Shown: one piece after another, positions 1-21,263 of the stretch
How positions within the stretch are numbered: position 1 is the stretch's first letter
Layout of the letters: each line of letters opens with the position of its first letter
Made by a program: the position numbers and the translations under genes
NCBI GenBank assembly: GCA_963768055.1
Contig: CAVYGN010000002.1
Location: 1,728,001 to 1,792,000, forward strand
Length of the DNA stretch: 64,000 nt
DNA from: an uncultured Spirochaetota bacterium
Lineage (GTDB): Bacteria > Spirochaetota > Brevinematia > Brevinematales > JAOACQ01
Direction: 5' to 3'
Notes under the pieces: generated by a model
What the model was told of the DNA's origin: nothing
Databases searched by the model: none
Seen by the model: only the letters and a program-made list of their open reading frames with translations

Positions 1-2
1 CA

Positions 3-2399
3 TTAAATTCCCTCTTTGACCATAAACTTTATTTCAAAAACCGTGCCCTCTTTTTCACCGCTGCGCACAGATATCATACCTTTGTTTTTTGTCACCAGGG
101 AATATACTATGGATAGCCCGAGCCCGGTTCCCTTGCCCGCTTCTTTTGTCGTAAAAAAGGGATTGAATATTTTGGTGATATTTTCCTGCGATATTCCTAT
201 CCCGGTATCCGACACGGAAGTTATTATCATATTGTTGCTGTAAGAAGAGCTGACGGTTAAAACCCCTTTTCCGTTCATAGCGTCAATGGCGTTGCTGTAT
301 AGATTGACAAATACCTGGTGTAAATCTCCGCCGTAGACAAAAACCGGGGGAATATCGGAATAGTCCTTTTTTACGGTTATATCTATAAAATTCCTGCTAT
401 ACCTCACTATCCTCAGAGCTTCGTCCATAATGTCGTTGAGGTTTAAATTCGCGGGCTTCTCTTCCTTAATGCTTCTCGAATAACTCGACAGGTCTTTGAC
501 TATATCTGAGGCATGAATGGTGAATTCTATAATCGTTTCAGCGTTTTCCCTTATATTTTTAGATTCCGCCTCGTCCCTTATTATTTCTGCATTGCCGAGT
601 ATTCCGTACAGCGGATTGTTGATTTCATGCGCGACGCCTGAAACCAGGGTGCCCAGGGCGGCCATTTTCTCCGCCCGGTATAATTGCTCTTTCATTTCTT
701 TCTGCGCCGTGATATTTTTCATGATTATCCCGGCCTCGCGCATATCTCCGTTTCCCGAAAGCTCAAACAGCGTATAACCCAGCGTTTCTTTGCCTATGGA
801 TAGCTCCTGATCGTCAAAAATGTTTCTGTTTCGGAGCATTTTTATCTGGTTGATGAAATAATCCCTGGTTGCGCTGTTTTCTATCCCGATAACATCAAGA
901 ATATTGCAGCCTGTGATCCTTGACGGCTCCAGCTTCATCTCTTTGATAAAAGATTCGTTAAAAAAAGATATCCTTAAAGTCACCGTGTCGAAAACCGCTA
1001 TCGATGAAGGGATGTTCGATATAATGTTCCTCGCGGCGTCGACGGCATATATCTTATTCAGGGCTACTTCGATCTGGTTGGAAATTGTTATGAAAAACTG
1101 CCTGTAAGATTCCCTCATGTTCGTCCTTGCGGACGGTATGTCGAAAATGATGTAGTATGAATATTTGTCATGTATTAATATTGGAAGGATGATGCTTTCA
1201 TGGTTATTATTATCTTCCCGGCCCGAATCGAACAGATCGAGATTGACCGCCGAATAATAATTGACGCTGGAATAGCCTTGAAGTTTATCCTTCCAGATTT
1301 GAGCCGTGTATTTATTGTTTAAAATTCTTTTTGGAGGTTTATCCATGTAAAAAACCGACGGTTCGTTCTGAATTTCAAACTGTTTATTAAAAACCAGGTA
1401 ATATCCCCTCAAAAACCCCATTTTTTCTATAATTATTTCAATTACCTTTTCCAGGGTATCCCTTTCCCCTTTGTAATAATTTATTCTTTCAGCCACTTCT
1501 TTTAAAACCGACAGTTTTTCAGCTTCCTCCCTGATAAACTTATTAGCGATCTGGAGTTCGTGAAGATCTTCTCTGCTGTCTACTATCGCTTTTTCGAGGG
1601 CCTTCGTCCTTTCATTTTCCGTTTCAATCGACTCGTTTTCTTTTCCGGCCGGGGGTTTGTTCATTATCAGGACAATTAATGCCGCCAGAAGGATCGTAAT
1701 TAATATGTCCTCCCGAACCGCAAATTTAAAATGAAATATATAAAAGCCTACCGTTTCCAGTACGACCATTATCAAAGCAATTGTTAACGTTATTATATTT
1801 TTAAATATCGGGTTTTTCATGTAAGAGATTTCATATACGCAGGAATCCGCCCCTTCAGCCTGACACTGGATTTCTTTTATTTTAGCCGGAGGCAGCCCCC
1901 ACATCGAGGGGAAGGCGGCATAAAGGCCTTTTATGGCATCGCAATTCAGCTTGCTCTGCGTGTGCCCGGGAAAAATAACGTATTTCAAAATACCCTTTGA
2001 ATTTCCGGTTGACGTATATTCGAACTTGCCGATCCTTGTATAAAGAGAACTGTACTCGGCGGCCTTTTTAAAAGCGATCAGAGGCGTTGAAACCAATTTC
2101 AATATATTCAGCATATAATTGAAAAAACTGTAGGAAAAATATCTTCCGGTTTCATACGCGACATCGGGATTTCCGGTAAATATCACAAGTTTTTCTAGGA
2201 ATGCATTGTAATAATCGAATGAAATCCAGTTATCCTTGTCCTCCAGGTAATCGAGATCCATGCCGGTTTCGATGACAAATTTCTTTAATTCTTCCTTGCC
2301 GAATCTTTTCTCTATATAAACAAGCACAGGTTTTATCACCATGCAGCTCAGATCGAAGGAAGCCTTGTCTATTTTTGAGAAATCCGGAGTTTTCAGCAT
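3..2399 (-). CDS. Membrane sensor histidine kinase: N-terminal HNOB/V4R-like ligand-binding region, 2 TM helices, GAF-like and PAS-like domains, HisKA-HATPase
   Basis: H-box AHEINNPL, N-box QVFVNLYSNAIDA, G-boxes DTGIGI and GKGTGLGLS; V4R-like C...EIQCQAEGADSCVYEI; two hydrophobic stretches near aa 200-245. The stop overlaps an ATG (TAATG) at 1-3, so another coupled gene starts at the window edge. Confidence 0.9.
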   Translation of the reverse strand: MLKTPDFSKIDKASFDLSCMVIKPVLVYIEKRFGKEELKKFVIETGMDLDYLEDKDNWISFDYYNAFLEKLVIFTGNPDVAYETGRYFSYSFFNYMLNILKLVSTPLIAFKKAAEYSSLYTRIGKFEYTSTGNSKGILKYVIFPGHTQSKLNCDAIKGLYAAFPSMWGLPPAKIKEIQCQAEGADSCVYEISYMKNPIFKNIITLTIALIMVVLETVGFYIFHFKFAVREDILITILLAALIVLIMNKPPAGKENESIETENERTKALEKAIVDSREDLHELQIANKFIREEAEKLSVLKEVAERINYYKGERDTLEKVIEIIIEKMGFLRGYYLVFNKQFEIQNEPSVFYMDKPPKRILNNKYTAQIWKDKLQGYSSVNYYSAVNLDLFDSGREDNNNHESIILPILIHDKYSYYIIFDIPSARTNMRESYRQFFITISNQIEVALNKIYAVDAARNIISNIPSSIAVFDTVTLRISFFNESFIKEMKLEPSRITGCNILDVIGIENSATRDYFINQIKMLRNRNIFDDQELSIGKETLGYTLFELSGNGDMREAGIIMKNITAQKEMKEQLYRAEKMAALGTLVSGVAHEINNPLYGILGNAEIIRDEAESKNIRENAETIIEFTIHASDIVKDLSSYSRSIKEEKPANLNLNDIMDEALRIVRYSRNFIDITVKKDYSDIPPVFVYGGDLHQVFVNLYSNAIDAMNGKGVLTVSSSYSNNMIITSVSDTGIGISQENITKIFNPFFTTKEAGKGTGLGLSIVYSLVTKNKGMISVRSGEKEGTVFEIKFMVKEGI

Positions 2400-2401
2400 A
2401 T

Positions 2402-2746
2402 TCAGTCCTGCCTGCTTGCCTTGAGACGCCTGTCAACCCCGGTGCGCCTGTCTTCATTCCGTCGTCTGTCGATGCCGGTATAATCTTCTCCCTGGGGTTT
2501 TGCGGAAACCACGGTTTCCTTCAGTTTTTCAATCGAATCATAAAGGTCCCTGACGGTTTTTATATGGGCTACTTTATTGATCGGAATGATAATGTCAAGC
2601 TTGTCTTCGATGTTTCCCATAATTTCCATTAGTTTTAACGAATCAAGGCCTAAATCGGCAACCAGTTCATCATCGGGCCGGTAAACCGAACCCGGTTTCA
2701 GGACGCCCTTCAATACTTTGTCGACTATTTCTTTTTTATTTTCCAT
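2402..2746 (-). CDS. Acyl carrier protein with Arg-rich C-terminal extension
   Basis: Phosphopantetheine motif DLGLDSL and typical IKTVRDLYDSI helix, then extra tail GIDRRRNEDRRTGVDRRLK. Start overlaps the upstream gene by 11 bp. Confidence 0.9.
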   Translation of the reverse strand: MENKKEIVDKVLKGVLKPGSVYRPDDELVADLGLDSLKLMEIMGNIEDKLDIIIPINKVAHIKTVRDLYDSIEKLKETVVSAKPQGEDYTGIDRRRNEDRRTGVDRRLKASRQD

Positions 2747-5150
2747 TCGAAGATACCCCTAATATGTGTTTATATTTTTCAAATATTTTCAAAGCCGCTT
2801 TCAGATCATCCCAATCATGCGTAGCAATATAGCTTGTCCTGAAGCCTGTGGCAATCTCAGGCACTGCCGGCTGGAGAACCGGATTCACATAGACGCCTTC
2901 GTCCATGAATATTTTGGCTGCGGCCAGCGTTAAAATTTCATTCCCCAGAATAACCGGTACGATCTGGGTCCCGAGAAATCTGGCATTGTAACCCATAGCC
3001 TCCAGACTGTCGCCCATAAACTTCGCTTTATCCATGATGTCTTTTCTCATTCCGGGCTTTTCCTTTATCAGTTTCAGAACCGCCCTGACTGTCGCTGCGA
3101 CCGATGCCGGAAGGCTGGCGCTGAAAATATGCGGGCTTCCTTTATGTTTGATATGGTCGATAACCCTGAAGTCTCCGGCGATAAATCCGCCCAGAGAAGC
3201 GAAACTTTTGCTGAAGGTACCCATTATCATATCCACGTCTTTTTCAATACCGGCAGCTTCGCAAGCTCCCCTTCCGTTTGCCCCGAAAACCCCGATCCCA
3301 TGCGCTTCGTCTACGAATAAACGCGATCCGTATTTCTTATTCAATTCGCTTATCGCCTTTAAATCGGGAATGGTGCCTTCCATGCTGAAAACAGAATCCG
3401 TTACAAGCAATACATTCCTGCCGGGCAGTTTGGATAAAACCTTTTCAAGGTTTTTCATATCATTATGACGGTAAACAAAATATGTCGCCCCTGAAAGTTT
3501 GGCAGCGTCGAACAAACTTCTATGGCTCCTCTCATCAAGGACTATTACATCCTCCGATCCGCATAATGCTGTAATTCCGGCCAGGTTGGTTTGGTACCCG
3601 GTGCTGCATATAACTACGGCCTCCCTGCCGAGAAATTCCGCAAGCTCGTTTTCCAATTTTTTATGTATGTCTAAAGTTCCGTTCAAAAGCGGCGAACCGG
3701 AGCATCCCGTGCCGTATTGATCTATCGCTTCTTTCGCCGCGTTCATCACTTCAGGATTACTGGCGGCCCCGAGATACGAGTTTGTGCCGAGCAGAACAAT
3801 TTTTTTGTCTTCGAGGTAAACGCAGGAATTCTGTGCCGTATTGAATTCCGGGTAATAATTGTAAATCCCCGATAATCGCGCCATGTTCGCCTTATAATAC
3901 TTCGATACTTTATTAAAAATATCACCGTCGGGGTAATCCAGTTGCAGCTTTTTAATTTCTTTTGAAATAAATATCAGGTTGGATCTGTTCAAAACATCCT
4001 CTTTAAAAGGATGGTGAAAAAAATTATCGGGTTGTTTGATCGAATCCGTAATCAGATGAGCCATAGTCCTTGAATATTCGCTGCTGTCACGGTGTCTGAC
4101 AAAATAAACAAGAGGCTGGGCAACGGCGCCCAGAACTAATTTGGGATCATAAGCCGTAATGCCCATTTCCAGTTTCTTCTTTCCAAGTTCGATTGCCCTT
4201 GAGAGGCTGAATATGTTATTTGCCTTGTATAAATGCGCGTTTTTATAATTGGTAAAATTATAATCGACCCCCCAGTACATTGTATAATAAGTATGCTCAT
4301 CAAAAATATTGAAACTGAAAGCGACGATTTGATCGCCGTATTTCATCAGCAAAACTTCACTGCTGTCTCTTAGCATGTCCGCCGCCGATTCGAAAAATTC
4401 CGGCGTAAAATATTCCCGTTCATATTCGGACGCTTTATCATAAACCTGTTTCCAGAGCGATGAGAGTTCATTTTTGTACTTTTTATAATCTCTGATAAAT
4501 TCATATTCAATGCCGAATTTCTCCTTGATTCGGAAAGACTGTTTATAGTAATCGGCGGCCCTGTTCTTTTTTTTCAAATCGGAAAAATATTCTTCGATGC
4601 TGTTCCATCTGACGTCCATAACGGCTTTTGGAAAACCGAGGGCCGGATAGAACCCGATAGGTTTCAGGGTTTGATAATAACGATCGAATTTTTCATAAGG
4701 GACATCGCGGAAAACCTGGATTTTTACGCCTTCCTCGTTGGAAATATCGTCCATTTCCCGGGCGGTTCTTTCCAGGATTGATTCGAAATCTTCATCATCT
4801 TTAACCATTAAACCTTCGCCCAGCAAACAGATATTCGCGCATTCAAGGGTTTTAAAATTTAAAAAATCCGGGTAAATCTGTTTGATCCTTTTTCTATAAT
4901 CGCTAAGGATAGAGGTATCCATCGAAGAAAAATCCGTGAATGCGATAAACAGGTTGGCCCTGGCTAATTCATACGTTTTGTCATGAAATAGAAGATAATA
5001 ATAGACCAGATTATTAATGCCCGACTGTTCGATCATTTTCAGAGAGTTGTACTTCAACTGGAATGGAAGGGAAAGATTTTTTTCCCATGTTTCTTTTAGA
5101 ATGCCGTTTAAGGAGCGTAGTTTCTCTATTTCGATATTTATCCTACTCAA
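2736..5150 (-). CDS. Bifunctional GNAT/FemAB-like acyltransferase plus PLP-dependent alpha-oxoamine synthase (SPT/BioF2-like)
   Basis: C-terminal half: LGTNSYLG, GTGCSGSPLLNGT, DSVFSMEG, DEAHGIG, PLP lysine in GTFSKS. N-terminal ~390 aa is GNAT-like (YWGVDY...AIELGKKKLEMGITAYDPKLVLGA). Confidence 0.88.
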   Translation of the reverse strand: MSRINIEIEKLRSLNGILKETWEKNLSLPFQLKYNSLKMIEQSGINNLVYYYLLFHDKTYELARANLFIAFTDFSSMDTSILSDYRKRIKQIYPDFLNFKTLECANICLLGEGLMVKDDEDFESILERTAREMDDISNEEGVKIQVFRDVPYEKFDRYYQTLKPIGFYPALGFPKAVMDVRWNSIEEYFSDLKKKNRAADYYKQSFRIKEKFGIEYEFIRDYKKYKNELSSLWKQVYDKASEYEREYFTPEFFESAADMLRDSSEVLLMKYGDQIVAFSFNIFDEHTYYTMYWGVDYNFTNYKNAHLYKANNIFSLSRAIELGKKKLEMGITAYDPKLVLGAVAQPLVYFVRHRDSSEYSRTMAHLITDSIKQPDNFFHHPFKEDVLNRSNLIFISKEIKKLQLDYPDGDIFNKVSKYYKANMARLSGIYNYYPEFNTAQNSCVYLEDKKIVLLGTNSYLGAASNPEVMNAAKEAIDQYGTGCSGSPLLNGTLDIHKKLENELAEFLGREAVVICSTGYQTNLAGITALCGSEDVIVLDERSHRSLFDAAKLSGATYFVYRHNDMKNLEKVLSKLPGRNVLLVTDSVFSMEGTIPDLKAISELNKKYGSRLFVDEAHGIGVFGANGRGACEAAGIEKDVDMIMGTFSKSFASLGGFIAGDFRVIDHIKHKGSPHIFSASLPASVAATVRAVLKLIKEKPGMRKDIMDKAKFMGDSLEAMGYNARFLGTQIVPVILGNEILTLAAAKIFMDEGVYVNPVLQPAVPEIATGFRTSYIATHDWDDLKAALKIFEKYKHILGVSSNGK

Positions 5151-6807
5151 TGTACTTTCCTTTTAATCTGCCTTGCATATATTCCTCTCTCATTAAATTC
5201 CGCTGAATTTTACCGCTTGGCGTTACCAGGATCGTTTTAGGTTTAACCGCGATTATTTTTAACACCTTTAAACCCGTTTTTCTCAAGATGATCCTGTCTA
5301 TTTCAGATTCGATAAACCTGAGATCGTCCCCATGGGAATATGTCGTTTCGTATATTACAATCAGTTCTACAACTCCGGAAGAAGACTTCGATGCAGGTAT
5401 ATCGAAACAAACAACACGGTTCCTTGCAATCTGTTTCAATTCTTTTATATATGATTCAATTTCATAAGGAAAATAATTTTCACCGTTAATAATGAACATA
5501 TCGTCGGAACGCCCCAATACAACAAGATCTTTTCCCCGGAAAAAACCGAAGTCCCTTGTATTTAAAAAACCGTCCCGATCGGATAGCCCGACTTCTTTTC
5601 CGTTTATGTATGCGCTCGAAGCCACATTGTTTCCGTATATTTTAATCAATCCGTACGGATCCCTGGGGTTTTCCTTTTCTATCTTTATTTCTATATTTTT
5701 TAAACACCTTCCTACCGTCGGATAAAAATATTCGTTCACTTTAAAGATCCTGTAAGGACGGAAAGGCTTCGCGATAGTGACCGCCAGGGTCGCCTCCGCA
5801 AGCCCGTAACATGGCGAAACTACGCCTTTTTTTAAGCCGTACGGGCGGAAAGCTTTTTCAAATTCCCTGATTTTATTGACGTTAATCGGTTCCGTTCCGA
5901 TGCCGATCCATTTTAATCTGCTTAAATCGAAGTTGTATTTTTCTTCCCTGTTGAGTCTGCGTAAAATCCACTCAATCGCAAAATTTGGCATGCAGCATGC
6001 CTGTATACCGTATCCGGAGAGAATCGTCATAAAATTTAACGGATGTTTGGCGAATTGCGCAGGTGTTAAAAGAACCAGTTCGCTTAATGTTAAAAGACTC
6101 CCCAGGAACGATCCGACAAGCCCCATGTCATGGTACAGTGGGAGCCAGTTTGCAGACCTGAACGCGGCGGGATTTATTTCAAGCGTTGTATAGATATCTT
6201 CGATGTTCGCCCTCAGGTTTTTATAGCGTATTATGACGCCTTTGGGTTGGCTGGTGCTTCCTGAAGTAAACTGTATGAAAATGGTGTCGTCATCTCCGGG
6301 TATCTGCCTTTCCGCATGGACATCACGTGGATTATCAAAACCGGCGAATATTTCACTGTATGTGAATATCTTGAAATCCAGGCCTCTTTCATAGCAAACG
6401 GATTTAATATCGTCTTTTTCATTTTCATCGCATATATAAAAATGGAATTGGCCCATAATAAACGATATGCGGTTTTTAAAAGCTTCTGCCGATATGAACG
6501 ATTCCCTGGGGGGCATCGGAACTACTGCCGCCCCGATCCATATATGTGCCAGCCATAGATAAACCAGCTCCATTGAGGTTTTGGATGACAGCAGCACGCG
6601 GTCGCTTTTTTTTATATTATGGCTTATAAGAATGTCCGCCAATATCCCCGCTTTTTTATATATTTCCGAATAACTGCTGAACTGCATTTTTCTTTCATTT
6701 TCATTATAAAAATATATTCCCCTGCTTCCGCAATGTTCAAGATCGTCCCATATTTGTTGAAAGCAGTTTAAATGATAGTCGAATTGCCGGTTCTTATGTT
6801 TAAACAT
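5143..6807 (-). CDS. Fatty acyl-AMP ligase (FAAL-type adenylating enzyme)
   Basis: FIQFTSGSTSQPKGV, WLPLYHDMGLVG, CYGLAEATL, GRSDDMFIINGENYFPYEIE, TPSGKIQR. Stop overlaps the next gene by 8 bp. Confidence 0.9.
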   Translation of the reverse strand: MFKHKNRQFDYHLNCFQQIWDDLEHCGSRGIYFYNENERKMQFSSYSEIYKKAGILADILISHNIKKSDRVLLSSKTSMELVYLWLAHIWIGAAVVPMPPRESFISAEAFKNRISFIMGQFHFYICDENEKDDIKSVCYERGLDFKIFTYSEIFAGFDNPRDVHAERQIPGDDDTIFIQFTSGSTSQPKGVIIRYKNLRANIEDIYTTLEINPAAFRSANWLPLYHDMGLVGSFLGSLLTLSELVLLTPAQFAKHPLNFMTILSGYGIQACCMPNFAIEWILRRLNREEKYNFDLSRLKWIGIGTEPINVNKIREFEKAFRPYGLKKGVVSPCYGLAEATLAVTIAKPFRPYRIFKVNEYFYPTVGRCLKNIEIKIEKENPRDPYGLIKIYGNNVASSAYINGKEVGLSDRDGFLNTRDFGFFRGKDLVVLGRSDDMFIINGENYFPYEIESYIKELKQIARNRVVCFDIPASKSSSGVVELIVIYETTYSHGDDLRFIESEIDRIILRKTGLKVLKIIAVKPKTILVTPSGKIQRNLMREEYMQGRLKGKYIE

Positions 6808-6854
6808 AAGGGCTGCCTCTCAACATATTATAATATGTATATTATATTAATCAA
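6793..6854 (-). promoter_or_regulatory. Putative sigma70 promoter of the FAAL operon with two perfect palindromes
   Basis: Minus strand TTGATT (6854-6849), 16 bp spacer, TATAAT (6832-6827). Palindromes ACATATTATAATATGT (6823-6838) and CTTATGTTTAAACATAAG (6793-6810). Confidence 0.55.
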
Positions 6855-6894: not shown

Positions 6895-7557
6895 TTAAAT
6901 CTCATTGAACAGGGTTTTTATCGTGTCGAGAAGCTGCTCTTTCGTGATTGGTTTCTGAAGATAGGCCATTCTCTCCTTTTTCAGATCGTAATGTTCTACT
7001 TCCGCATCGAAATCTATAGCCGTTATAAATATGATCGGGACTATCTCGTCAAGTTTCCGGATAAGCATAGCCAGTTCTATACCGTCAAAATCCGGAAGGT
7101 GGATGTCCGTTATCACCAGATCGGGGATCAGGTTCTGAAACAGTAAAAGACCTTCCGCAGCGTTCTTTGCCGTGAAAACACTGAAATTTTCCTTTTGAAG
7201 CATGTACGAAACGGTTTTAGTTATATACGCCAGATCGTCAATCAGCAGAATATTGGTTCGAGTTAAATCTTTTTTTATTTCCCCCAACTTGGCAAATATT
7301 TCTTTTTGAATGGATTTAATATGTATGCTGATTTTCTGGTCGATGTTCCCTGAGATCCAACTTGAAAAACGTTCCTTTATCATTTGTTCCCGGGACTCGC
7401 TGTCTAATTTCTCAATCAGTTTCTTTTTTTCAACTATGGGGATTTTCATATTAAGAATTTCTATTACCTTATTCTTGTTCTCCTCAGAACGGCTGCGTTT
7501 TAATAAAAAACCCAGCTCAATTAGCATATCGCCATTAAAAGGATTGTCAGTATCCAT
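6895..7557 (-). CDS. Response regulator: C-terminal REC domain, unknown helical N-terminal region
   Basis: ILLIDD, LVITDIHLPDFDG, IFITA, YLQKP motifs; no recognisable DNA-binding output domain. Confidence 0.85.
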   Translation of the reverse strand: MDTDNPFNGDMLIELGFLLKRSRSEENKNKVIEILNMKIPIVEKKKLIEKLDSESREQMIKERFSSWISGNIDQKISIHIKSIQKEIFAKLGEIKKDLTRTNILLIDDLAYITKTVSYMLQKENFSVFTAKNAAEGLLLFQNLIPDLVITDIHLPDFDGIELAMLIRKLDEIVPIIFITAIDFDAEVEHYDLKKERMAYLQKPITKEQLLDTIKTLFNEI

Positions 7558-7827: not shown

Positions 7828-8985
7828 TCACAAGTTCACAGGTTTTACCGAATCGTTCAGCAATTTCCACCAGTTGTCAGCATATGCAGGATTCTGGTCC
7901 TTGCCGCTTAAAAACCTGTACACTATATCCTGGGTATTTCCGTCCGCATAAAATTTTGCATGCTCGACATTATTTACAGTAAACGATCTAAACGGCATTT
8001 TGTATATTAAAGAGCTGTCCGTATGGACTGTCCCGTCACCATCGTTATTTTTTACTGCGCCCTCAAAATTTACAAAATTATTTATTCCATTTTTGTCCTG
8101 AATGACTTCCAGCTTTTTTACTGTTTCTTTACCGGTCCCTGCCAGGATTATAATATTCTTTTTTATTTCATCCGGAAGCTTATTAAGGTCGAATAAATTG
8201 TTTCTATATTCAGCCATTGATACTATTCTTTTTTTTATTAAATTTGCATTATCATTCAAACCGTTCGTATCGGTATTTATGAAAAGATTGGATTGCCAGT
8301 TATCGCTTTGCGTAAGATCGACATTTGTTTCCGTTCCGCTCCAGACTATGGCTCCGTCATTATACGGGACAAGCTCGAAGATTGCCGGCAGGGTCCGGGC
8401 TATATGGCGGAACTTGTTGTTAAAATTAAAAATATTAAAGGGAACAGTCGTACCCATGATCAATGCCTGTATTGCGATGAAGGCGCCTCTGAACGGACAG
8501 GCACCAATAATAGCCCTGTCCAGCATGGATAAGTTATTTTCGTTAAAGAGCTTCTTCAGATAAAATAAAAAAATATTTCCGCCCCAGCTATGGGTGATAA
8601 AATTAAATTTAATATTCCCGCCTCGCGATGCTGTCAGCTTATTAGTGAGGTTATTTACATAGTCGGATAACATACTTGCGTTGTAATCGCATGGCTTTCT
8701 CCAGTCATAAGTAAAAAGATAAATTTGATCACCGAAATCTTTTTTCAAGACGGAATAGAAATGCCTGTAAATATCTCCGATGATAAGGTAATCTGCAAAC
8801 ACCTTATTCTTTTCCACCAGCACAGAATCGAGCCTATCGAAACGATAATCCTCTTGGAGGGTCCATTGGTCCGGATTGAATCCTGCCATCTTGGACAGAT
8901 CATAAATGTCGTCATAATCGAGCGAATTACTGTTGACTATATGACCTCCAAGGAAGCCATGGATAAATATGATCGGGTTTGACAT
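7828..8985 (-). CDS. Alpha/beta hydrolase, LCAT/PGAP1-like lipase or acyltransferase
   Basis: IIFIHGFLGG oxyanion region, FTYDWRK, nucleophile THSWGG, GDGTV and late His (VEHAK). Confidence 0.8.
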   Translation of the reverse strand: MSNPIIFIHGFLGGHIVNSNSLDYDDIYDLSKMAGFNPDQWTLQEDYRFDRLDSVLVEKNKVFADYLIIGDIYRHFYSVLKKDFGDQIYLFTYDWRKPCDYNASMLSDYVNNLTNKLTASRGGNIKFNFITHSWGGNIFLFYLKKLFNENNLSMLDRAIIGACPFRGAFIAIQALIMGTTVPFNIFNFNNKFRHIARTLPAIFELVPYNDGAIVWSGTETNVDLTQSDNWQSNLFINTDTNGLNDNANLIKKRIVSMAEYRNNLFDLNKLPDEIKKNIIILAGTGKETVKKLEVIQDKNGINNFVNFEGAVKNNDGDGTVHTDSSLIYKMPFRSFTVNNVEHAKFYADGNTQDIVYRFLSGKDQNPAYADNWWKLLNDSVKPVNL

Positions 8986-9113: not shown

Positions 9114-10901
9114 CTAAAGATAATTAAGCAAGCTTATCTTAACCCATTCGTCAGGATAATATCCATAGTGAGCTTCAATAGTCTTATTTTTTAGATCTAA
9201 AAGAGATGTGCTCCCTTCGATCCTTTTAAAAGGCCTTCCTGACGGGTCATTATCCACAGGGTTATTACTAATATCAGCATAATTTTTGCAATCGCTGTCA
9301 TATGGATTATCGGGCTGAGGCGAGAGATAATCAATAAGGCTTTTAGCCTTTTTATAATCTATAACTCCCTTTGACAATTCATCGATGAAAAGACTGTTAA
9401 GTTTATCGTAACGCCATTGAACATCGTCGCTTTTCGGAATGTTCCCCGGATTGGTATTATTAACACCCGCGGACCACTCCCACATCATCGCCAATCTCAT
9501 TTCCGGTATGATGTAATTATTGGTTGTGAGGACATAATCACCGTTCGACTTTCTCATAGGACTAAAAAAATATGTCCTGGGACAGTTCTTTTCCTGAACA
9601 TTTTTATCTATATAACCGTTGTCGTCAAAAGCAGTTGCATTATAAGCAGCGGGAGATGGAGAATCGGGATATTTATTTTTATACCAGGACAAAAGCCCTT
9701 TGTTAAAAGAAAGATATTGCTTTTCATATTTATAGTCGTTCCAGCGAACCATAAGGCCGTTTTGCCAATCAGCGGTCTTATGCTCATTTAAAAACTCTGT
9801 GGAAGGGAGTTGAGCGGCTAATTCTTTATTACTGTTATGCGGATTCGGGTAGAACAGGAAATTGCTGTTTACCATAGATGAGCCGGCCTCGACAACGCAG
9901 GCCCTGTCATTGGCCCCGTCGCCTATCAGATAAATCCATGAAACTCCCCTGGGCAAACCTTCCATAATATCGACTGCGCTTTTTGCACTATCGGCAAATT
10001 GAACAGCGTATCTGACAAGAAGTAGAGAATTAATTCCTATGCTGTCAGGAGTGCAATTGCCTGAAGCAACGATCTGTACCCCGCAGGCGATTCCGAGACT
10101 GTTCATTGAAGTAGGGCTTCCCACAAACCCTGGTGCAGTCATATTGACCGTAGGAAGAGCCTTTAATCCGGAGGCTGAAGTCACGCCTATGAGGTTGTTG
10201 ATGATAAGACATGCTGTCTTCTGATATACCTGCGCAGTAGGAAACATAAAATCCCGACCCATGTAATGCCCGCTGCCTGCGGATTTCCCAAATACAGAAA
10301 AACCGTTGCACATCATAGGCATTTTAAAATGCTGCGGGCTTGTATTGGTTACCGGTTCGTTTAAACCAAGACTTAACCAGTCCCCCGTGTAAATGATGGA
10401 ACATAGAATATCATGTCCAAAGTTGAGCGCCAAAAGATTTTCTATCAAGACTTTCGTTTTCAGCCCTTTACTCTGCATAACATCCTGACATCCCTTCACA
10501 ATACCATTCATTTCTTCTCTAAGTTCCGGAGGCACAATGACATGATCATTTTTGGATAAGTTCTTTGCTATGTCAAGGATGATTCCGCCGAGCCAGTCTT
10601 CAAGAATCTTCACTATATCAGGTTCCTGCTGATCGTTTATAAACGATATGACTATACGATCGGCAAAATCAGTTGTCATTTCTGAAATTTCGGATTCAGC
10701 AAGGCATCCGAGCAGATAACCCATTTCGTAATGGCTTCCTTCTACGTAATAAGCCTTTTTAGGCTGACCATTTACACTGTTTTTTGCCGTATTATGTTCT
10801 GCCATCATCCCGATCCTTCCCTGATAGGATATAATATTCTCATCCCTCACGTTAAAATTATCTTTAGCAAAGGCAGCCTTCAGATCGTTTATGTTACCCA
10901 T
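9114..10901 (-). CDS. C45-family autoproteolytic Ntn hydrolase (acyltransferase/acid-ceramidase-like fold)
   Basis: EGSHYEMGY near the N-terminus, probable self-cleavage site MM/CNGF followed by GRDFMF, SMNSLGI; RBS AGGAGG. Confidence 0.75.
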   Translation of the reverse strand: MGNINDLKAAFAKDNFNVRDENIISYQGRIGMMAEHNTAKNSVNGQPKKAYYVEGSHYEMGYLLGCLAESEISEMTTDFADRIVISFINDQQEPDIVKILEDWLGGIILDIAKNLSKNDHVIVPPELREEMNGIVKGCQDVMQSKGLKTKVLIENLLALNFGHDILCSIIYTGDWLSLGLNEPVTNTSPQHFKMPMMCNGFSVFGKSAGSGHYMGRDFMFPTAQVYQKTACLIINNLIGVTSASGLKALPTVNMTAPGFVGSPTSMNSLGIACGVQIVASGNCTPDSIGINSLLLVRYAVQFADSAKSAVDIMEGLPRGVSWIYLIGDGANDRACVVEAGSSMVNSNFLFYPNPHNSNKELAAQLPSTEFLNEHKTADWQNGLMVRWNDYKYEKQYLSFNKGLLSWYKNKYPDSPSPAAYNATAFDDNGYIDKNVQEKNCPRTYFFSPMRKSNGDYVLTTNNYIIPEMRLAMMWEWSAGVNNTNPGNIPKSDDVQWRYDKLNSLFIDELSKGVIDYKKAKSLIDYLSPQPDNPYDSDCKNYADISNNPVDNDPSGRPFKRIEGSTSLLDLKNKTIEAHYGYYPDEWVKISLLNYL

Positions 10902-11595: not shown

Positions 11596-11750
11596 ATTTG
11601 CAGAATTTTTTTGCTTGTTTTACTGTAACATTTTTTTGATTAAAGTCATTACTCTCCGAAATTTAATAATTGTTTTCCATTACCGGCATATTGATTCTTT
11701 TTTGTGGGCGATTCAATATTCTAGTGTGCATGTTATTTAAGGAGATATTT

Positions 11751-12215
11751 ATGAATAAATTGTCATTGTTAATCACAGGTTTGCTTTTTATCTTCTCTTT
11801 GGTTTACAGTCAGGAAATAAAGAGCGCGGACAGGTACTCGGAAGCAGTCAATTTTGTCAACAAAGGCTTGGATTATATTAAAACCCGCGGGAATGATGAG
11901 GCCTTTACCGAATTCAGCAATCCCAGGGGAAAGTTTTCAAGCAAAAGGCTTTATCTTTTCGTAGTGGATTTCAAAGGAATGGTTCTTGCGCATGGAGCCA
12001 ACACAAACTTTATTGGCAAAAACCAGCTTGATTTGATGGATGCGGATGGAAAATATTTCATAAGGGAATTTATCAATATCGCTTCAAATAAAGGAGCGGG
12101 CTGGGTATCTTATAAATGGTCTAATCCCGCCACGAAGAAAATCCAGAACAAAACGACATATATAAAAAAAATAGATAGTATGGATGCATTCCTGGGATGC
12201 GGTGTTTACAAATAA
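11751..12215 (+). CDS. Stand-alone exported single-Cache (sCache_2) ligand-binding protein
   Basis: RBS AAGGAG before ATG 11751; signal peptide; YLFVVDFKGMVLAH, GKNQLDLMDADGK, GWVSYKWSNP, GCGVY. Confidence 0.85.
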   Translation: MNKLSLLITGLLFIFSLVYSQEIKSADRYSEAVNFVNKGLDYIKTRGNDEAFTEFSNPRGKFSSKRLYLFVVDFKGMVLAHGANTNFIGKNQLDLMDADGKYFIREFINIASNKGAGWVSYKWSNPATKKIQNKTTYIKKIDSMDAFLGCGVYK

Positions 12216-12251
12216 AACTTAATTCATCATTGTTCGTCAAATTTAAAACAG

Positions 12252-13910
12252 ATGGAGTATTATGAGATGAAAAATACTATAAGTAATTTTAAAATAATGA
12301 CCAAGTTGATGATTTTGCTTGTAATATCCCTGATTTTTTTAATAATACTGGGTATTTCATTCTTTATCCAGCTGACCCTTCAGGAAAACAGGACTGTAGA
12401 AATTTATAGCAACAGGCTAAATAATTATATGACATACTCTGAAATTCACAATGATATAATGGAAGTTCAAACCAGCCTTTTTCAAATGATCACATGGGTT
12501 AACGCAAATTACCAAACTGCAAGAATAAAGGAAATCGGAGACAAGCAGAAAGTGAACATTAAGAATGTCGAAACGATCATCGGGGATTTTCTGAAATCCG
12601 GGAAATCTTCTTCTGAAGAAAAACAGCTCTATGGGGATCTGTTTAAGAATTTCGAGGATTATGAAGACTGGGCTTTAAGGGTTATTGATATGGTCGGGGT
12701 GGACTCGGCCATAGCAACAATGCAGATGGGAACGGTTAATAATAAATTTTCTCTTCTTAAGGAAACGGTAGAAAAATTGCAGTCTCTTGAAAACAAAATA
12801 AGCAAAGCTAAATATTCTTCTTCGATTCAGCAGTCCCTATCGGTCTTAATCGCAATTATGTTAATTTTTATCATAACATTGATCGCCGTTTCACTTTATA
12901 TAAGCAGATCGATTACCGAACCGCTGAAAAATGTTGTTAATATTATAAAAGGCATAGTACAGTATGATTTTACAAAAAAAGTTCAAATAATTTCGAATGA
13001 TGAGATTGGAGAAATGGCCAATTGTTTTAATTTACTTGAAGAGCAGATAAAGGACCTCCTTATAAAAATAAAGAGCTCGTCAAAGGTTTTATTGAATTCG
13101 ATCCAGGGGCTTTCAGTCTCTTCTGATGAAATATTCGCTACCGCGGAATTGCAGGCAACATCAGTCAAAGAAATCGTAACGACAATGGAAGATTCGAATG
13201 TTATCAGCAATGAAATGTCTAAATCGATCAACGAAGTGGTGAAAATTGCCATGCAGACAAAAAACAATGTTGAAACCGGCGTTTCTTATGTAAAAAACAG
13301 CCTCTCCAAGATGGAGGAAATTAAAAATAAAAATATGGATACCATCAACGGTATCAAACAGCTTGGTGAAAAAATAGAGAATATATGGGACATCGTCAAC
13401 ATTATCAACGGCATAGTAAACCAGACAAAAATATTAGCCTTCAATGCTGCCCTTGAAGCTTCTTCGGCAAGCGAAGGAGGCAAGAATTTCCAGATTGTGG
13501 CGAGCGAGATCAAGCGTCTTGCCGATAACACTATGGTTTCCACCAAGGAAATAAAAGAGAAAATAAATGAAATCCAGAGTTCTTCCAACAATTTAATCAT
13601 TATTTCGGAAGACGGAACTGAAAGAATACGGGAAGGCTGGGAATTATCACAGAAGCTGGAAGATATTTTCGAAAATATTTTAAGATCGGCCGAAATTTCA
13701 GCGGAATCTTCGGAGGACATTGAATTATCCATCAAGCAGCAAACCTCTGCTTTTCAACAGATTCTCCTGACCCTTAAAGAAATATCCAAAGGAGTGGAGA
13801 ATTTCGTAGTTTCTACGAAACAAACAAGCGATACGACGGAAACACTTAAAAGCATGGCGGACAGTTTAAATAAAACAATCGAGAAGTATACTCTTGAATA
13901 CAGAATTTAA
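12252..13910 (+). CDS. Methyl-accepting chemotaxis protein (2 TM, four-helix-bundle sensor, HAMP)
   Basis: TM-sensor-TM-HAMP (DEIGEMA) layout; signalling hairpin QTKILAFNAALEA...GKNFQIVASEIKRLAD. Confidence 0.92.
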   Translation: MEYYEMKNTISNFKIMTKLMILLVISLIFLIILGISFFIQLTLQENRTVEIYSNRLNNYMTYSEIHNDIMEVQTSLFQMITWVNANYQTARIKEIGDKQKVNIKNVETIIGDFLKSGKSSSEEKQLYGDLFKNFEDYEDWALRVIDMVGVDSAIATMQMGTVNNKFSLLKETVEKLQSLENKISKAKYSSSIQQSLSVLIAIMLIFIITLIAVSLYISRSITEPLKNVVNIIKGIVQYDFTKKVQIISNDEIGEMANCFNLLEEQIKDLLIKIKSSSKVLLNSIQGLSVSSDEIFATAELQATSVKEIVTTMEDSNVISNEMSKSINEVVKIAMQTKNNVETGVSYVKNSLSKMEEIKNKNMDTINGIKQLGEKIENIWDIVNIINGIVNQTKILAFNAALEASSASEGGKNFQIVASEIKRLADNTMVSTKEIKEKINEIQSSSNNLIIISEDGTERIREGWELSQKLEDIFENILRSAEISAESSEDIELSIKQQTSAFQQILLTLKEISKGVENFVVSTKQTSDTTETLKSMADSLNKTIEKYTLEYRI

Positions 13911-13928
13911 GATGCATCGGGGGATAAA

Positions 13929-15650
13929 ATGTTAGCGAAAAAAGACCTGAGAAACATCAAATTCAAAATAGTACTGACGATATTTTTATCGAATTTCTTT
14001 GTCTTGGCATCCAGCAAATTCCATGATGCCATTTTCAGCAATTATTTCGATTCAATTAACGCAGGTTTATTGATCAGATTTCTCAATATCTTTGATCCAC
14101 TTGTCTTTTCAGTTTTTATAGTGATGGCCGTTTTTACCAGCATAGTTATTTTGAAATTTTTAAGCAATCTGTTTATTTACCTTGAAAAAAATACGGATTA
14201 CGACAAGGCGAGAACTTCGACAGTCAGCATTCCATGGATCATCCTTGTGGTTCAAACGATCTTCTGGGCGTTAGGGGCTACGGGATATTATATGATCAAC
14301 AACTGGCAGGCCGATAACGGCCAGCCTTATTGCTGGGAATTGTTGCTCAAAGTCAGCACCGGCATAGTCGGCTCGCTTTATACTTCTCTCGTGATAAACA
14401 TCATTCTGATGAAACCGAAAACATTGCTTGGCATGACAGATATCCGCGAAGGGGAAAACGACCTATTTGCAAGAATCAAAGATTACTTGATAATTTTCAG
14501 CCTCGCTTTTTATCTTGTTATCAATTTTTCCCTGCATGCTTATTACAGCATGAATGCAGGAAAAGCCTATGAAGGGGCTTTCATTACCGAAACGGTCATT
14601 TCCGGTGTATTTTTTATTGCGGTCTGTTATGGGCTTATAATTCTCTCAAAGAAGGAGTATTTTTACCAGGTTAAATTTTTAAAACAGAAACTCGAGGCAT
14701 TCTCGTCCGGCAGATTAGACCTTTCCAAAAGAATCTTCCTTATCAATTTCGATGAGATAGGTGAACTGGCAGTAAATGTAAATAAAGTTATCGGGAATAT
14801 CGAGGACCTCATAGGAAACGTGGAAAAGTCGACCAGGGAGCTTCATAAATCGACTCAGAATTTATCCGTTTCGACTAAAGAAATATCCGCGACGTCAACC
14901 CAGCAGGCTGCTTCTGTAAAGGAAATAGTTTCTACAATGGAAGACACCGACCAGCTTTCAAAACAGGTATTGAAATCGATAGGAGAAGTGGTAAAAAATG
15001 TTACGGCAACCAAATACAATGTGGAAATAGGCGTGTCTATCGTTAAAAACAGCCAGAGTAAAATGTACGAAATAAAGGACAAGAATAATGAAACCCTTGC
15101 GGGTATCAAATCCCTGGTGGATAAAATTGAAAACATCTGGGATATAGTGACTATAATTAACGGCATTGTTGAACAGACGAGGATCATTGCTTTTAACGCG
15201 GCCCTTGAAGCTATCTCAGCCGGAGATGCCGGTAAGAACTTCCAGATCGTGGCTAATGAAATTAAACGACTTGCGGATAATACGATATTGTCAACCCAGG
15301 AAATAAAAACAAAAATCAATGAAATACAGCATTCTTCAAATGATCTGATCGTGGTTTCGGAAAATGAAACAGAAAAAATCAACGACGGATGGGAGTTGTC
15401 TCACAGGCTGGAGGAAGTGTTCAATAATATTTTGAATTCCGCAGAAGTTTCGTCTTCAACATCGGGGAATATCGAACTTTCCACAAAACAGCAGGTTTCG
15501 GCCTTCGACCAGATTCTGCTGACGCTCAAAGAAATTTCTAAAGGGATAGAAAATTTTGTTATTTCTACAAGGCAGACCAGCGAAACTACGGAGACCCTTA
15601 AGAATATGGCCGACAGCCTTAATGAAATCATAGAAAAGTATAAGGTTTAA
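13929..15650 (+). CDS. Methyl-accepting chemotaxis protein with multi-TM integral-membrane input
   Basis: About six hydrophobic segments, DEIGEL HAMP, QTRIIAFNAALEA...GKNFQIVANEIKRLAD. Confidence 0.92.
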   Translation: MLAKKDLRNIKFKIVLTIFLSNFFVLASSKFHDAIFSNYFDSINAGLLIRFLNIFDPLVFSVFIVMAVFTSIVILKFLSNLFIYLEKNTDYDKARTSTVSIPWIILVVQTIFWALGATGYYMINNWQADNGQPYCWELLLKVSTGIVGSLYTSLVINIILMKPKTLLGMTDIREGENDLFARIKDYLIIFSLAFYLVINFSLHAYYSMNAGKAYEGAFITETVISGVFFIAVCYGLIILSKKEYFYQVKFLKQKLEAFSSGRLDLSKRIFLINFDEIGELAVNVNKVIGNIEDLIGNVEKSTRELHKSTQNLSVSTKEISATSTQQAASVKEIVSTMEDTDQLSKQVLKSIGEVVKNVTATKYNVEIGVSIVKNSQSKMYEIKDKNNETLAGIKSLVDKIENIWDIVTIINGIVEQTRIIAFNAALEAISAGDAGKNFQIVANEIKRLADNTILSTQEIKTKINEIQHSSNDLIVVSENETEKINDGWELSHRLEEVFNNILNSAEVSSSTSGNIELSTKQQVSAFDQILLTLKEISKGIENFVISTRQTSETTETLKNMADSLNEIIEKYKV

Positions 15651-15675
15651 TAATACGGTCTTGGCAGGATATTAT

Positions 15676-16188
15676 ATGAAAAACGGTAAAATAATGGATA
15701 ATGAGGAAATAATCCGGAATATTAAGGAAAACAAGGCGGCGTTTCCTGAAAAAATAGATCCTGGCGAACCCTTTCAAAAATATCTCGTTTTCAGCATCGA
15801 AAGCGGCAAAGTTTCTTTTAAAGCCGAATTGGTCAAAGAGATCGTATTAAACACCTCGGTTTATTTCATACCCTTCTGCCCGCCGTTTATAAGCGGCCTT
15901 ATCAACAGGCATGGGGAACCTTACACCGTTATCGATTTGAATGTGCTGCTTGAAAATCAAAAGCAGGAAACTAATAAATTTATAATTATGAATTTAAAAG
16001 ACGACCATATCGCCTTCAGTATTAAAGATATTCTTGAAATTGCAGATATTCCTCAGAGTGCGATTTTTAAAGCCGATTTACAGAAAAAAGAAAATGAATT
16101 TGTCCAGGGTTTCATTGATTACAATAACGAGAAGGTTTTTATTATCGATCTTGATAAAATTAATGAAAGGCTTGCAAATGAACTCTAA
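15676..16188 (+). CDS. cheW: CheW coupling protein
   Basis: IPFCPPFISGLINRHGEPYTVIDL; operon context; ATG at 15676 (ORF track starts at TTG 15661). Confidence 0.85.
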   Translation: MKNGKIMDNEEIIRNIKENKAAFPEKIDPGEPFQKYLVFSIESGKVSFKAELVKEIVLNTSVYFIPFCPPFISGLINRHGEPYTVIDLNVLLENQKQETNKFIIMNLKDDHIAFSIKDILEIADIPQSAIFKADLQKKENEFVQGFIDYNNEKVFIIDLDKINERLANEL

Positions 16189-16687
16189 TTTAAGTTATGA
16201 GTTCCTGCTTCTTCACTATCCGAACATCGATTTTTTAATAAGCAGCAGTGAAATACAGGAAACCCTGTATATAAGAAATTTCCGGGAGATACAAGGCAAA
16301 AACAAATATTTCGCTGGAATTGCGGAATATAAAAAAGGGAATATCCTTATAGCCGATTTTCAAAACTATTTAAATAAGACATTCAAATTAATCGTTAAAT
16401 CGGATTTTCATGTTGCGATAGTTTATAATGCCGGAAGTTCCGGTTTATTTAAAGATATTGCAGGCGAATTCTCAGGATGGGATGGTAGTAGCATCGGTTT
16501 GATCGTGACAAATAGTTTCGAGCTTAAAGAAATTCCTCTTGGCGAAATTAAATTGATCCCGGAGTCGATAAGGAAGAAAAATTTCGAACATGGAATTCTC
16601 GGGGTTAGATTTTTAGATGATAAAAAAAATCAATACTATCTTGATATGAAGAATACAATTAAAAACTTAATTCAGGGGGTTAATTAG
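16178..16687 (+). CDS. Second, divergent CheW-like protein
   Basis: YFAGIAEYKKGNILIADF resembles the CheW core; lies between cheW and cheB; ATG 16178 overlaps the cheW end. Confidence 0.55.
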   Translation: MNSNLSYEFLLLHYPNIDFLISSSEIQETLYIRNFREIQGKNKYFAGIAEYKKGNILIADFQNYLNKTFKLIVKSDFHVAIVYNAGSSGLFKDIAGEFSGWDGSSIGLIVTNSFELKEIPLGEIKLIPESIRKKNFEHGILGVRFLDDKKNQYYLDMKNTIKNLIQGVN

Positions 16688-19101: not shown

Positions 19102-19102
19102 A

Positions 19103-21259: not shown

Positions 21260-21263
21260 TTCT

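Follow-up and report, generated by a model that had tools for sequence, protein, structure and literature searches.

A BioF2-type biosynthetic cassette translationally coupled to a sensor histidine kinase in an uncultured Spirochaetota bacterium: a plausible make-and-sense circuit

What is made by a set of enzymes whose genes are joined to that of a sensor histidine kinase, and would the kinase respond to what they make? The question is raised by a 64,000-nucleotide stretch of DNA from an uncultured bacterium of the Spirochaetota (order Brevinematales; GenBank assembly GCA_963768055.1, contig CAVYGN010000002.1, positions 1,728,001 to 1,792,000 of the forward strand), the whole of which is referred to here as the window. 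In its first 6.8 kb, four genes are joined on the minus strand, encoding a fatty acyl-AMP ligase (FAAL)-like enzyme, a fusion of a FemAB-like domain with an alpha-oxoamine synthase (AOS), and an acyl carrier protein (ACP), as well as a histidine kinase. An earlier note on this DNA had described the four genes as translationally coupled and had proposed that the products of the first three make a lipid which the kinase senses. The coupling is confirmed in the sequence: the ligase and fusion genes overlap by 8 bp (5143-5150), the fusion and ACP genes overlap by 11 bp (2736-2746), the ACP and kinase genes are separated by 2 bp (2400-2401), and the kinase stop codon overlaps the ATG of a further gene, which extends beyond the window edge. 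Short gene overlaps of such size are ordinary operon anatomy. The cassette is real, and a make-and-sense circuit is plausible, with sensing as its unproven part.

The fusion enzyme is matched by the Pfam families Aminotran_1_2 (E 6.6e-55), FemAB_like (E 4.3e-9), and Acetyltransf_6 (E 2.3e-6), and, as judged by sequence comparison, it belongs at full length, as a new member, to the known yet uncharacterised family of the BioF2 (Rv0032) type. A word-indexed homologue search, in which 8000 candidates were scored, gave 428 proteins at E <= 0.001. The best 120 of these 428 are mostly 770-830 amino acids (aa) long, cover the query to 90-100%, and come from Beta- and Gammaproteobacteria, Mycobacterium, Nocardia, Streptomyces, a Spirochaetales metagenome-assembled genome (MAG), and Bacteroidota. 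The closest non-self homologue among the matches listed is 52% identical, and two Mycobacterium homologues of 771 aa (P0073, P0082) share 43-44% identity with the fusion at 95% coverage. In an alignment of 36 fusion homologues, with a mean column identity of 56%, the pyridoxal phosphate (PLP) lysine K648, H543, and D614/H617 are invariant, as are many polar residues of the N-terminal domain. Since invariant residues lie in both domains, it is argued that both halves of the fusion are functional. The accessible part of a 2026 review (PMC12910592) describes Rv0032 as carrying AOS signatures together with an extra N-terminal domain, as closest to bacterial serine palmitoyltransferases (SPTs), and as unassigned in function; it also reports that Rv0032 fails to complement a bioF mutant, a point in favour of the earlier reading. 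In the literature outside subscription journals and supplements, nothing was found that describes a product of the FemAB-like/AOS fusion or a link of this fusion to a sensor kinase.

Several lines of comparison place the AOS half next to the SPTs. Among NCBIfam models it is matched best by SPT (CFB) with 402.8 bits, followed by SPT-beta (339.5 bits), BioF (330 bits), and Kbl (312 bits), while the CqsA-type model NF005526 comes out at 190.5 bits against a cut-off of 428. SPT also comes first when the PDB is searched with the family profile, where Sphingobacterium SPT scores 473 bits, Sphingomonas SPT 354, ThAOS 346, and Kbl about 338, with lower scores for BioF (292), cysteate acyltransferase (286), ALAS (284), and CqsA (174). 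The analogy with CqsA and LqsA drawn in the earlier note thus concerns the AOS subfamily that fits least. The residues which hold PLP and L-serine in the SPT of S. multivorum were taken from the structure paper and mapped onto the AOS domain. Kept are Asn52, Tyr54, Gly80, Ser81, His138, Ser185, Asp210, His213, Thr241, Ser243, and Lys244 (S. multivorum numbering), and four positions are changed, namely Ala79 to Ser, Arg82 to Pro, Phe83 to Leu, and Met271 to Ile. By these measures the AOS half is SPT-like and not CqsA-like, the kept residues being no proof of serine specificity.

To test linkage across genomes, genome contigs were scanned with two peptide patterns lying inside the AOS domain, and 80 loci were kept among the matches listed. 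They comprise 78 stand-alone AOS relatives (41-47% identity) and two fusions, one in Agaribacterium haliotis (L001) and one in an actinomycete MAG (L005). SPT (CFB) is the best NCBIfam model for all 39 loci scored of the 80; the 37 stand-alone enzymes among them reach 494-690 bits, two of them at or above the cut-off, and the two fusions 403 and 442 bits. Two of the stand-alone SPT-like open reading frames (ORFs), when read between stops with the earliest possible start, far exceed the others in length: one of 775 aa (L027:9989-12313) has its AOS match at residues 5-394 and some 380 unassigned C-terminal residues beyond it, and one of 557 aa (L031:9875-11545) has its match at residues 45-433 and about 120 residues beyond.

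A maximum-likelihood tree of AOS domains, as suggested in the earlier note, was built from 119 domains, with L029 and L054 omitted for internal stops. In this tree, 39 of the 40 fusion AOS domains, that of the window included, fall into one clade (SH-aLRT 99). This clade adjoins the Spt of E. coli and the 76 SPT-like enzymes that stand alone; BioF and Kbl of E. coli form the outgroup. The fortieth fusion, P0273, stands outside this clade and has the reversed layout PilZ-AOS-FemAB, so that GNAT and AOS domains are found fused in both orders, the other being represented by P0100 (FemAB-AOS-PilZ). The position of the P0273 AOS outside the clade, together with the reversed order, argues for an independent fusion event and, by extension, for a functional coupling of the GNAT and AOS domains; from sequence data, the two were probably joined more than once. 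The c-di-GMP-binding domain PilZ (PF07238) is present in two further fusion relatives, P0112 and P0113.

The substrate of the AOS half would be provided by the other two members of the trio. The ligase contains the Pfam AMP-binding domain (E 2.9e-42), its best NCBIfam model is 'fatty acyl-AMP ligase' with 257.6 bits against a cut-off of 600, and its top PDB sequence matches are all FAALs (3kxw, 7r7e, 3pbk, and FadD32). The FAAL-specific insertion, which we take to follow the YGLAE motif, may be reduced or absent: just after this motif, the ligase (residues ~346-410) lacks 19 aa relative to E. coli AasR, and 54 aa instead of 83 aa (29 aa fewer) lie between aligned blocks in the comparison with the Legionella FAAL 3kxw, these boundaries resting on alignment and not on structure. 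The ACP is matched by Pfam PP-binding (E 2e-10) and has the DSL serine. The ligase is predicted to load a fatty acid onto this dedicated ACP. The ACP carries in addition a C-terminal tail of about 38 residues (window 2405-2518, minus strand) that is rich in Arg and Asp and includes three DRR repeats; the corresponding ORF of Agaribacterium is only 90 aa long, which leaves no room for a tail of this length.

An acyl-ACP synthetase, an ACP, and an SPT-type AOS are likewise brought together in the AasR/AcpR/Spt system of alpha-, beta-, and gamma-Proteobacteria (CC_1165/1163/1162 in Caulobacter; a cluster in E. coli BL21), whose AasR is annotated in BL21 as a fatty acyl-AMP ligase. The identities of the window proteins to their BL21 counterparts, 27% for the ligase and AasR (full length, E 3e-49), 36% for the ACP and AcpR (over 75 aa, E 2e-14), and 39% for the AOS and Spt (E 5e-83), indicate homology and do not imply orthology. 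That AcpR is loaded by AasR, and that proteobacterial SPTs prefer acyl-AcpR as their substrate, has been shown experimentally according to the accessible text of PMC9386255. Unlike in that system, the AOS of the window is fused to a Fem-type tandem-GNAT domain, belongs to a separate clade, and scores below the SPT cut-offs; the window operon is also without a CerR/epimerase-type reductase and without a YghO-type N-acyltransferase, and it includes a translationally coupled histidine kinase.

The second known relative is the BioF2 (Rv0032)-AcpA-FadD34 set of the M. tuberculosis complex, to which the earlier note had likened the trio. This likeness stands, since BioF2-type homologues do occur in Mycobacterium and the trio is found together in Agaribacterium haliotis, there in the order fusion-ACP-ligase. 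The fusion architecture is the same as in the mycobacterial set, the comparison having been made via P0073 and P0082 and not with Rv0032 itself. The order of the genes in M. tuberculosis is presumably bioF2-acpA-Rv0034-fadD34, unlike the order ligase-fusion-ACP-kinase of the window, and to our knowledge that cluster includes no kinase. Among the 80 loci, ligase and ACP homologues beside the AOS were found only at the Agaribacterium fusion locus and at none of the 78 stand-alone loci.

The N-terminal half of the fusion had been called a GNAT in the earlier note. This is correct as to the fold; more precisely, it is a Fem-type tandem-GNAT domain of about 400 aa, as seen from the Pfam match to FemAB_like and from structural comparison. 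In a Foldseek search with an AlphaFold2 model of the domain (39 sequences; pLDDT 93.8), the top matches were FemX (6snr, 1xf8), the peptide synthases Sbb17/Sba18, MprF C-terminal domains, and FemA (1lrz), with E values of 4.5e-10 to 1e-8, TM scores of 0.5-0.7, and only 8-13% identity. The tandem-GNAT Fem fold is thus common to these transferases and to the window domain, donor use being predicted only. The best structural matches being aminoacyl-tRNA-dependent enzymes of the Fem/MprF type, an N-acyl product is one possibility among others; VipF, Eis, and the clavulanate tandem GNAT, tandem GNATs that use acetyl-CoA, match almost as well.

An analogy with bacterial ceramide synthase (bCerS; CC_1154 in Caulobacter, YghO in E. 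coli), also put forward earlier, was not borne out as homology. The logical step, modification of the amine of an AOS product, would be the same, and no sequence relationship was detected: the family profile compared with YghO of E. coli BL21 gave an hhalign probability of 0.2% (E 0.29), and YghO itself matches no Pfam family at E <= 0.01. YghO has been named by the Geiger group as a homologue of the Caulobacter N-acyltransferase (aca/bCerS), and for Caulobacter an order has been proposed in which the 3-keto base is acylated first (both in the accessible text of PMC9386255). A near-length search with the N-terminal domain alone returned two matches, both apparently truncated fusions, and no close stand-alone protein at that sensitivity. 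In a plasmid collection, tblastn with the same domain gave 24 records, all of them stand-alone GNAT/FemAB-like proteins of about 19-25% identity, and no fusion.

The kinase that ends the row of four has a conventional core (Pfam HisKA, E 3.6e-11; HATPase_c, E 8.2e-22). Because two hydrophobic helices, only 7 residues apart, follow residues 1-200, the sensor domain and the kinase core both lie in the cytoplasm. By this predicted topology, no periplasmic domain is possible, and the sensor faces the cytoplasm or the inner leaflet. The earlier note had named it a V4R sensor, which holds as far as the fold superfamily is concerned; the Pfam V4R match (PF02830; E 0.0018) stays under the gathering score with 18.8 bits against 31, Pfam HNOB gives no match in the kinase, and the domain belongs to an unnamed family. 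An AlphaFold2 model of the domain, made with 21 short family members, has a pLDDT of 93.3, and Foldseek matches it best to H-NOX proteins (E 4.6e-8; TMq 0.64-0.71, with 0.64 for 2o09 and 0.71 for 4u99), then to the V4R protein MJ_1460 (2osd/2oso; E 3e-4, TM 0.42-0.53), with TRAPPC3 after it. According to the accessible parts of PMC10933270 and PMC7264223, this fold class of H-NOX, V4R, and TRAPPC3 has cavities for hydrophobic ligands, and its members bind phenols, palmitate, or heme.

In 151 aligned sequences of the sensor family, W58, C153, C179, and C187 are conserved to 89-95%, and position 176, Glu in the window kinase, is His in 35 of the 151. The motif C153/E176/C179/C187 resembles the zinc site of DmpR, reported as Cys151/Glu172/Cys177/Cys185 (accessible text of PMC7264223), and is a predicted site. 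A conserved His was sought in the same 151 sequences, and no column with at least 20% His was found except position 176, which is the zinc-site position; this lack argues, from sequence columns and without residue-level superposition, against canonical heme binding by the domain. The fold is thus held in common with H-NOX-associated kinases, the sensory domain of DmpR/PoxR, and TRAPPC3/Bet3, the Cys...Glu...Cys-x7-Cys motif being comparable to that of DmpR. Unlike H-NOX and V4R domains, the window sensor has no HNOB match or conserved heme-ligating His, and it stands N-terminal to a membrane hairpin and a kinase core. The representative listed as 100% identical to kinase residues 1-200, P0123, carries Ala as residue 21, for which the window (2337-2339) has a Val codon.

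A full HMMER scan of the sensor domain against 1.84 billion representatives gave 956 proteins at E <= 1e-3 and 256 at E <= 1e-10. From the best 150 of the 956, two sets of 68 and 61 proteins were scanned with Pfam. The domain is mostly N-terminal on histidine kinases, HATPase_c being present in 62 of 68 and 35 of 61 proteins; in these subsets it is also found on GGDEF, EAL, cyclase, HD, SpoIIE, Ser/Thr-kinase, and ABC-exporter proteins. At E <= 1e-3, V4R is recognized in 5 of 68 and 2 of 61 and Arabinose_bd in 11 of 68 and 12 of 61. In P0137 the domain stands at the C-terminus of an ABC exporter half-transporter (V4R E 1.2e-5), and in P0208 it is fused to a Ser/Thr protein kinase. In a further kinase, P0151, whose kinase core is very like that of the window, PilZ directly precedes the sensor domain; residues 1-338 of P0151 were considered as a GNAT domain and rejected (HMM E 0.065, hhalign 2%, no Pfam match at E <= 5). 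The presence of PilZ on relatives of the fusion and on this kinase suggests that enzyme and sensor are under c-di-GMP control in some lineages.

What connects enzymes and kinase in the window is, besides the 2-bp junction, the gene of a receiver-only response regulator, which lies 87 bp upstream of the ligase gene on the same strand and had no place in the earlier account. Its translation shows the signature residues DD, D, T, and K. With this gene upstream of the ligase gene and the kinase gene last, the kinase and its candidate partner flank the enzyme genes; by its position, the regulator may be the partner of the kinase. A second connection is provided by a natural fusion outside the window, P0154 (912 aa), in which a BioF2-type FemAB-like domain is followed directly by the sensor domain and then by the kinase core. 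Its FemAB-like domain matches the profile of the N-terminal domain of the fusion (hhalign 99.9%, E 9.8e-33; HMM 191.6 bits) and, apart from itself, is closest to the FemAB domain in P0273, the fusion with reversed order; its sensor domain is 33% identical to that of the window (E 4e-37). P0154 would argue for a real connection, the two modules having then been neighbours, or partners, in another and distant lineage as well, unless it is an assembly artefact. A complex prediction for the N-terminal domain and the sensor domain scored 0.01 (mark 0.32) and is evidence neither way.

From these components the following scenario can be drawn. The FAAL-like enzyme would adenylate a fatty acid and load the dedicated ACP, and the SPT-like AOS domain would condense the acyl-ACP with an amino acid of small size, L-serine being the likeliest. 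Modification of the new amine, by N-acylation or N-aminoacylation, would then fall to the fused Fem-type tandem-GNAT domain. The product would be a long-chain alpha-amino-ketone (sphingoid-like) lipid built on a private carrier. The co-expressed, membrane-anchored kinase would bind a hydrophobic ligand in its cytoplasmic, heme-less H-NOX/V4R-fold domain, this ligand most economically being the product of the cassette or an intermediate, and would pass its signal to the receiver-only regulator whose gene lies just upstream. An amino-ketone lipid is very likely what the trio makes, and a functional tie of the kinase to the cassette is somewhat probable. The explanation as a whole, a two-function operon of lipid synthesis and a product-sensing kinase with an upstream regulator, is tentative and slightly on the doubtful side. 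Direct sensing of the cassette product by the kinase is fairly unlikely, and so, to a greater degree, is a self-contained circuit in which the kinase would read, on the cytoplasmic side of the membrane, an N-modified sphingoid-like keto-lipid made by the BioF2-type synthase, with the receiver-only regulator as its output.

A number of observations weigh against this scenario. As to the enzymes, the scores of the AOS and the ligase are all under the curated NCBIfam cut-offs, including every SPT model (NF047600, 402.8 against 640 bits; NF047599, 339.5 against 500; NF047603, 262.4 against 670), and the class of the product is uncertain, as the top structural matches of the GNAT domain use aminoacyl-tRNA and not acyl-CoA. 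As to the kinase, the earlier note had looked to other genomes for a conserved linkage, and this was not found: at neither of the two other genomic fusion loci was a sensor domain detected within 10 kb, either by tblastn at 1e-5 or by phmmer of all ORFs at 1e-3, so that there is no general linkage, and the actinomycete locus is also without detectable ligase and ACP nearby. With only two other fusion loci among the 80, this linkage test is badly under-powered, and the linkage of the kinase to the cassette is weak. The sensor family is moreover large (956 clusters), occurring on kinases, GGDEF/EAL proteins, cyclases, and a Ser/Thr kinase, and of the 150 sensor proteins listed, one has a GNAT domain and none an AOS, a ligase, or an ACP; in the plasmid collection, tblastn with the sensor domain gave no matches. 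P0154 is a singleton on one 7.7-kb contig and could therefore be an assembly artefact. In Agaribacterium, finally, the trio is part of one same-strand run without a kinase (L001:3679-20019) that looks like a natural-product cluster, containing a TauD dioxygenase, a darcynin, an AurF-like oxygenase, an MFS transporter, two class-III aminotransferases, a GMC oxidoreductase, an amine oxidase, an SDR, and a hydrolase.

The alternative that survives best is that the kinase responds to a cue unrelated to the product, such as oxidation of the Cys/Glu/Cys/Cys zinc site, the state of the membrane, or an exogenous hydrophobic compound, and shares the operon, perhaps as a control of lipid remodelling. 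A general input module that is distributed over so many clusters and output types would suit such a role, as would the Cys triad with its likeness to the DmpR zinc site and the absence of the kinase from both other fusion loci. A ligand-independent mechanism of this kind has a precedent in the accessible text of PMC7108781, where a heme-free H-NOX protein is described as a thiol/zinc redox sensor that senses oxidation via Cys residues. The tight translational coupling of the kinase gene to the ACP gene, the natural GNAT-sensor-kinase fusion P0154, and the placing of the enzymes between regulator and kinase speak against an unrelated cue, which as an explanation is possible, though on the unlikely side.

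Less probable still, and unlikely, is that the trio makes a building block of a secondary metabolite and not a membrane lipid, with the Fem-type domain adding an amino acid from aminoacyl-tRNA and the kinase being a pathway-specific regulator or unrelated. The run of tailoring enzymes around the Agaribacterium trio would fit this picture, and so would the aminoacyl-tRNA dependence of FemX, Sbb17/Sba18, and MprF, the best structural matches of the GNAT domain; yet acetyl-CoA-using tandem GNATs match that domain too, and the trio of the window is coupled to no tailoring enzymes, an LCAT-like and a C45-family protein, which are the closest candidates, being set off by gaps of 128-270 bp.

CqsS and LqsS are multi-pass membrane receptors. 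That AOS enzymes can make ligands for adjacent sensors is already known from CqsA/CqsS, LqsA/LqsS, and Lgs/TetR. In all three systems the AOS likewise stands beside the proposed sensor of its product, as given for the Bacteroides fragilis pair Lgs/TetR in the accessible part of bioRxiv 10.1101/2025.08.20.671311, where the product of Lgs is a released ligand of the TetR regulator next to it. Unlike in these systems, the AOS of the window is SPT-like, would take its acyl group from a private ACP, and has an extra transferase domain, and its presumed sensor is a cytoplasmic H-NOX/V4R-fold domain on a kinase anchored by two helices, neither a multi-pass receptor nor a TetR protein. That the cassette makes a diffusible intercellular signal of the CqsA/CqsS or LqsA/LqsS quorum-sensing type, with the kinase as receptor, is highly improbable: such precedents exist, CqsA is among the PDB matches, and hydrophobic signals can cross membranes to a cytoplasmic sensor, but CqsA is the least similar AOS subfamily, the periplasmic loop of the kinase has only 7 residues, no exporter is visible in the operon (the downstream gene lying outside the window), and a product of the C16-C18 type that a FAAL-like enzyme loads via an ACP would diffuse poorly.

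Table 1. Features of the cassette and its immediate surroundings, in positions of the window
Feature	Position	Strand	Remarks
ATG of a further gene	1..3	-	TAATG at 5..1; kinase stop TAA 5..3 overlaps ATG 3..1
Histidine kinase gene	3..2399	-	798 aa
HisKA + HATPase_c kinase core	21..656	-	residues 582-793
Membrane hairpin of the kinase	1659..1802	-	two hydrophobic segments, residues ~200-247, 7-residue loop (Kyte-Doolittle)
H-NOX/V4R-fold sensor domain of the kinase	1800..2399	-	residues 1-200, N-terminal, predicted cytoplasmic
ACP gene	2402..2746	-	114 aa
FemAB-like/AOS fusion gene	2736..5150	-	804 aa, TTG start
SPT-like AOS domain of the fusion	2736..3935	-	residues 406-804 plus stop
FemAB-like/Acetyltransf_6 tandem-GNAT domain of the fusion	3936..5150	-	residues 1-405
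FAAL-like ligase gene	5143..6807	-	554 aa
Promoter-like site TTGATT-16-TATAAT	6827..6854	-	in the 87-bp gap before the ligase gene; consensus match only
Receiver-only response regulator gene	6895..7557	-	220 aa; Response_reg 2.5e-20; ~100-aa N-terminal extension, no output domain

The promoter-like site before the ligase gene is overlapped by an AT-rich palindrome (6823-6849). Promoter-like sites are not in excess across the region, 41 having been counted against 33.4 +/- 6.3 in shuffled sequences. Rfam (at gathering thresholds) and ARAGORN gave no matches on the whole window, and from the Rfam result no riboswitch explains the regulation; likewise, PADLOC gave no matches on seven genes, so that the operon is not a known defence system. 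Further upstream on the operon strand, genes are found for an LCAT-like alpha/beta hydrolase (7828-8985; PF02450, 4.4e-12) and for a C45-family autoproteolytic acyltransferase/hydrolase (9114-10901; NF040521, 5.4e-22). Both could plausibly act on lipids or amides, and they were found at none of the 80 related loci.

Divergently transcribed from the operon is a chemotaxis-like cluster (11670-23120, plus strand) with an sCache protein, two methyl-accepting chemotaxis proteins, CheW, CheB, CheR, a CheA-receiver hybrid, and, as the apparent output, a receiver-adenylate/guanylate cyclase. An insertion sequence is marked by a DDE transposase (34746-36083, plus strand; DDE_Tnp_1_4, E 5e-131). On the minus strand, at 39938-47743, a RecD-like helicase (39938-41608), a UvrD/PD-(D/E)XK protein (41605-44772), and an overlapping ORF of 1025 aa (44666-47743) may form a set of the AddAB/RecBCD type.

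A cassette of this kind from a non-pathogen, coupled to a sensor kinase, offers a tractable route to the product of the family, to the role of the Fem-type domain, and to the ligand of the sensor. If the kinase is unrelated to the enzymes, there is still a new, though ordinary, member of a biosynthetic family that is uncharacterised. If, on the other hand, the circuit is true, it would provide the first function for the BioF2 (Rv0032) enzyme family and the first ligand class for an unnamed sensor-domain family of about a thousand clusters, and through the variants in which either module is fused to PilZ it would be tied to c-di-GMP control of lifestyle.

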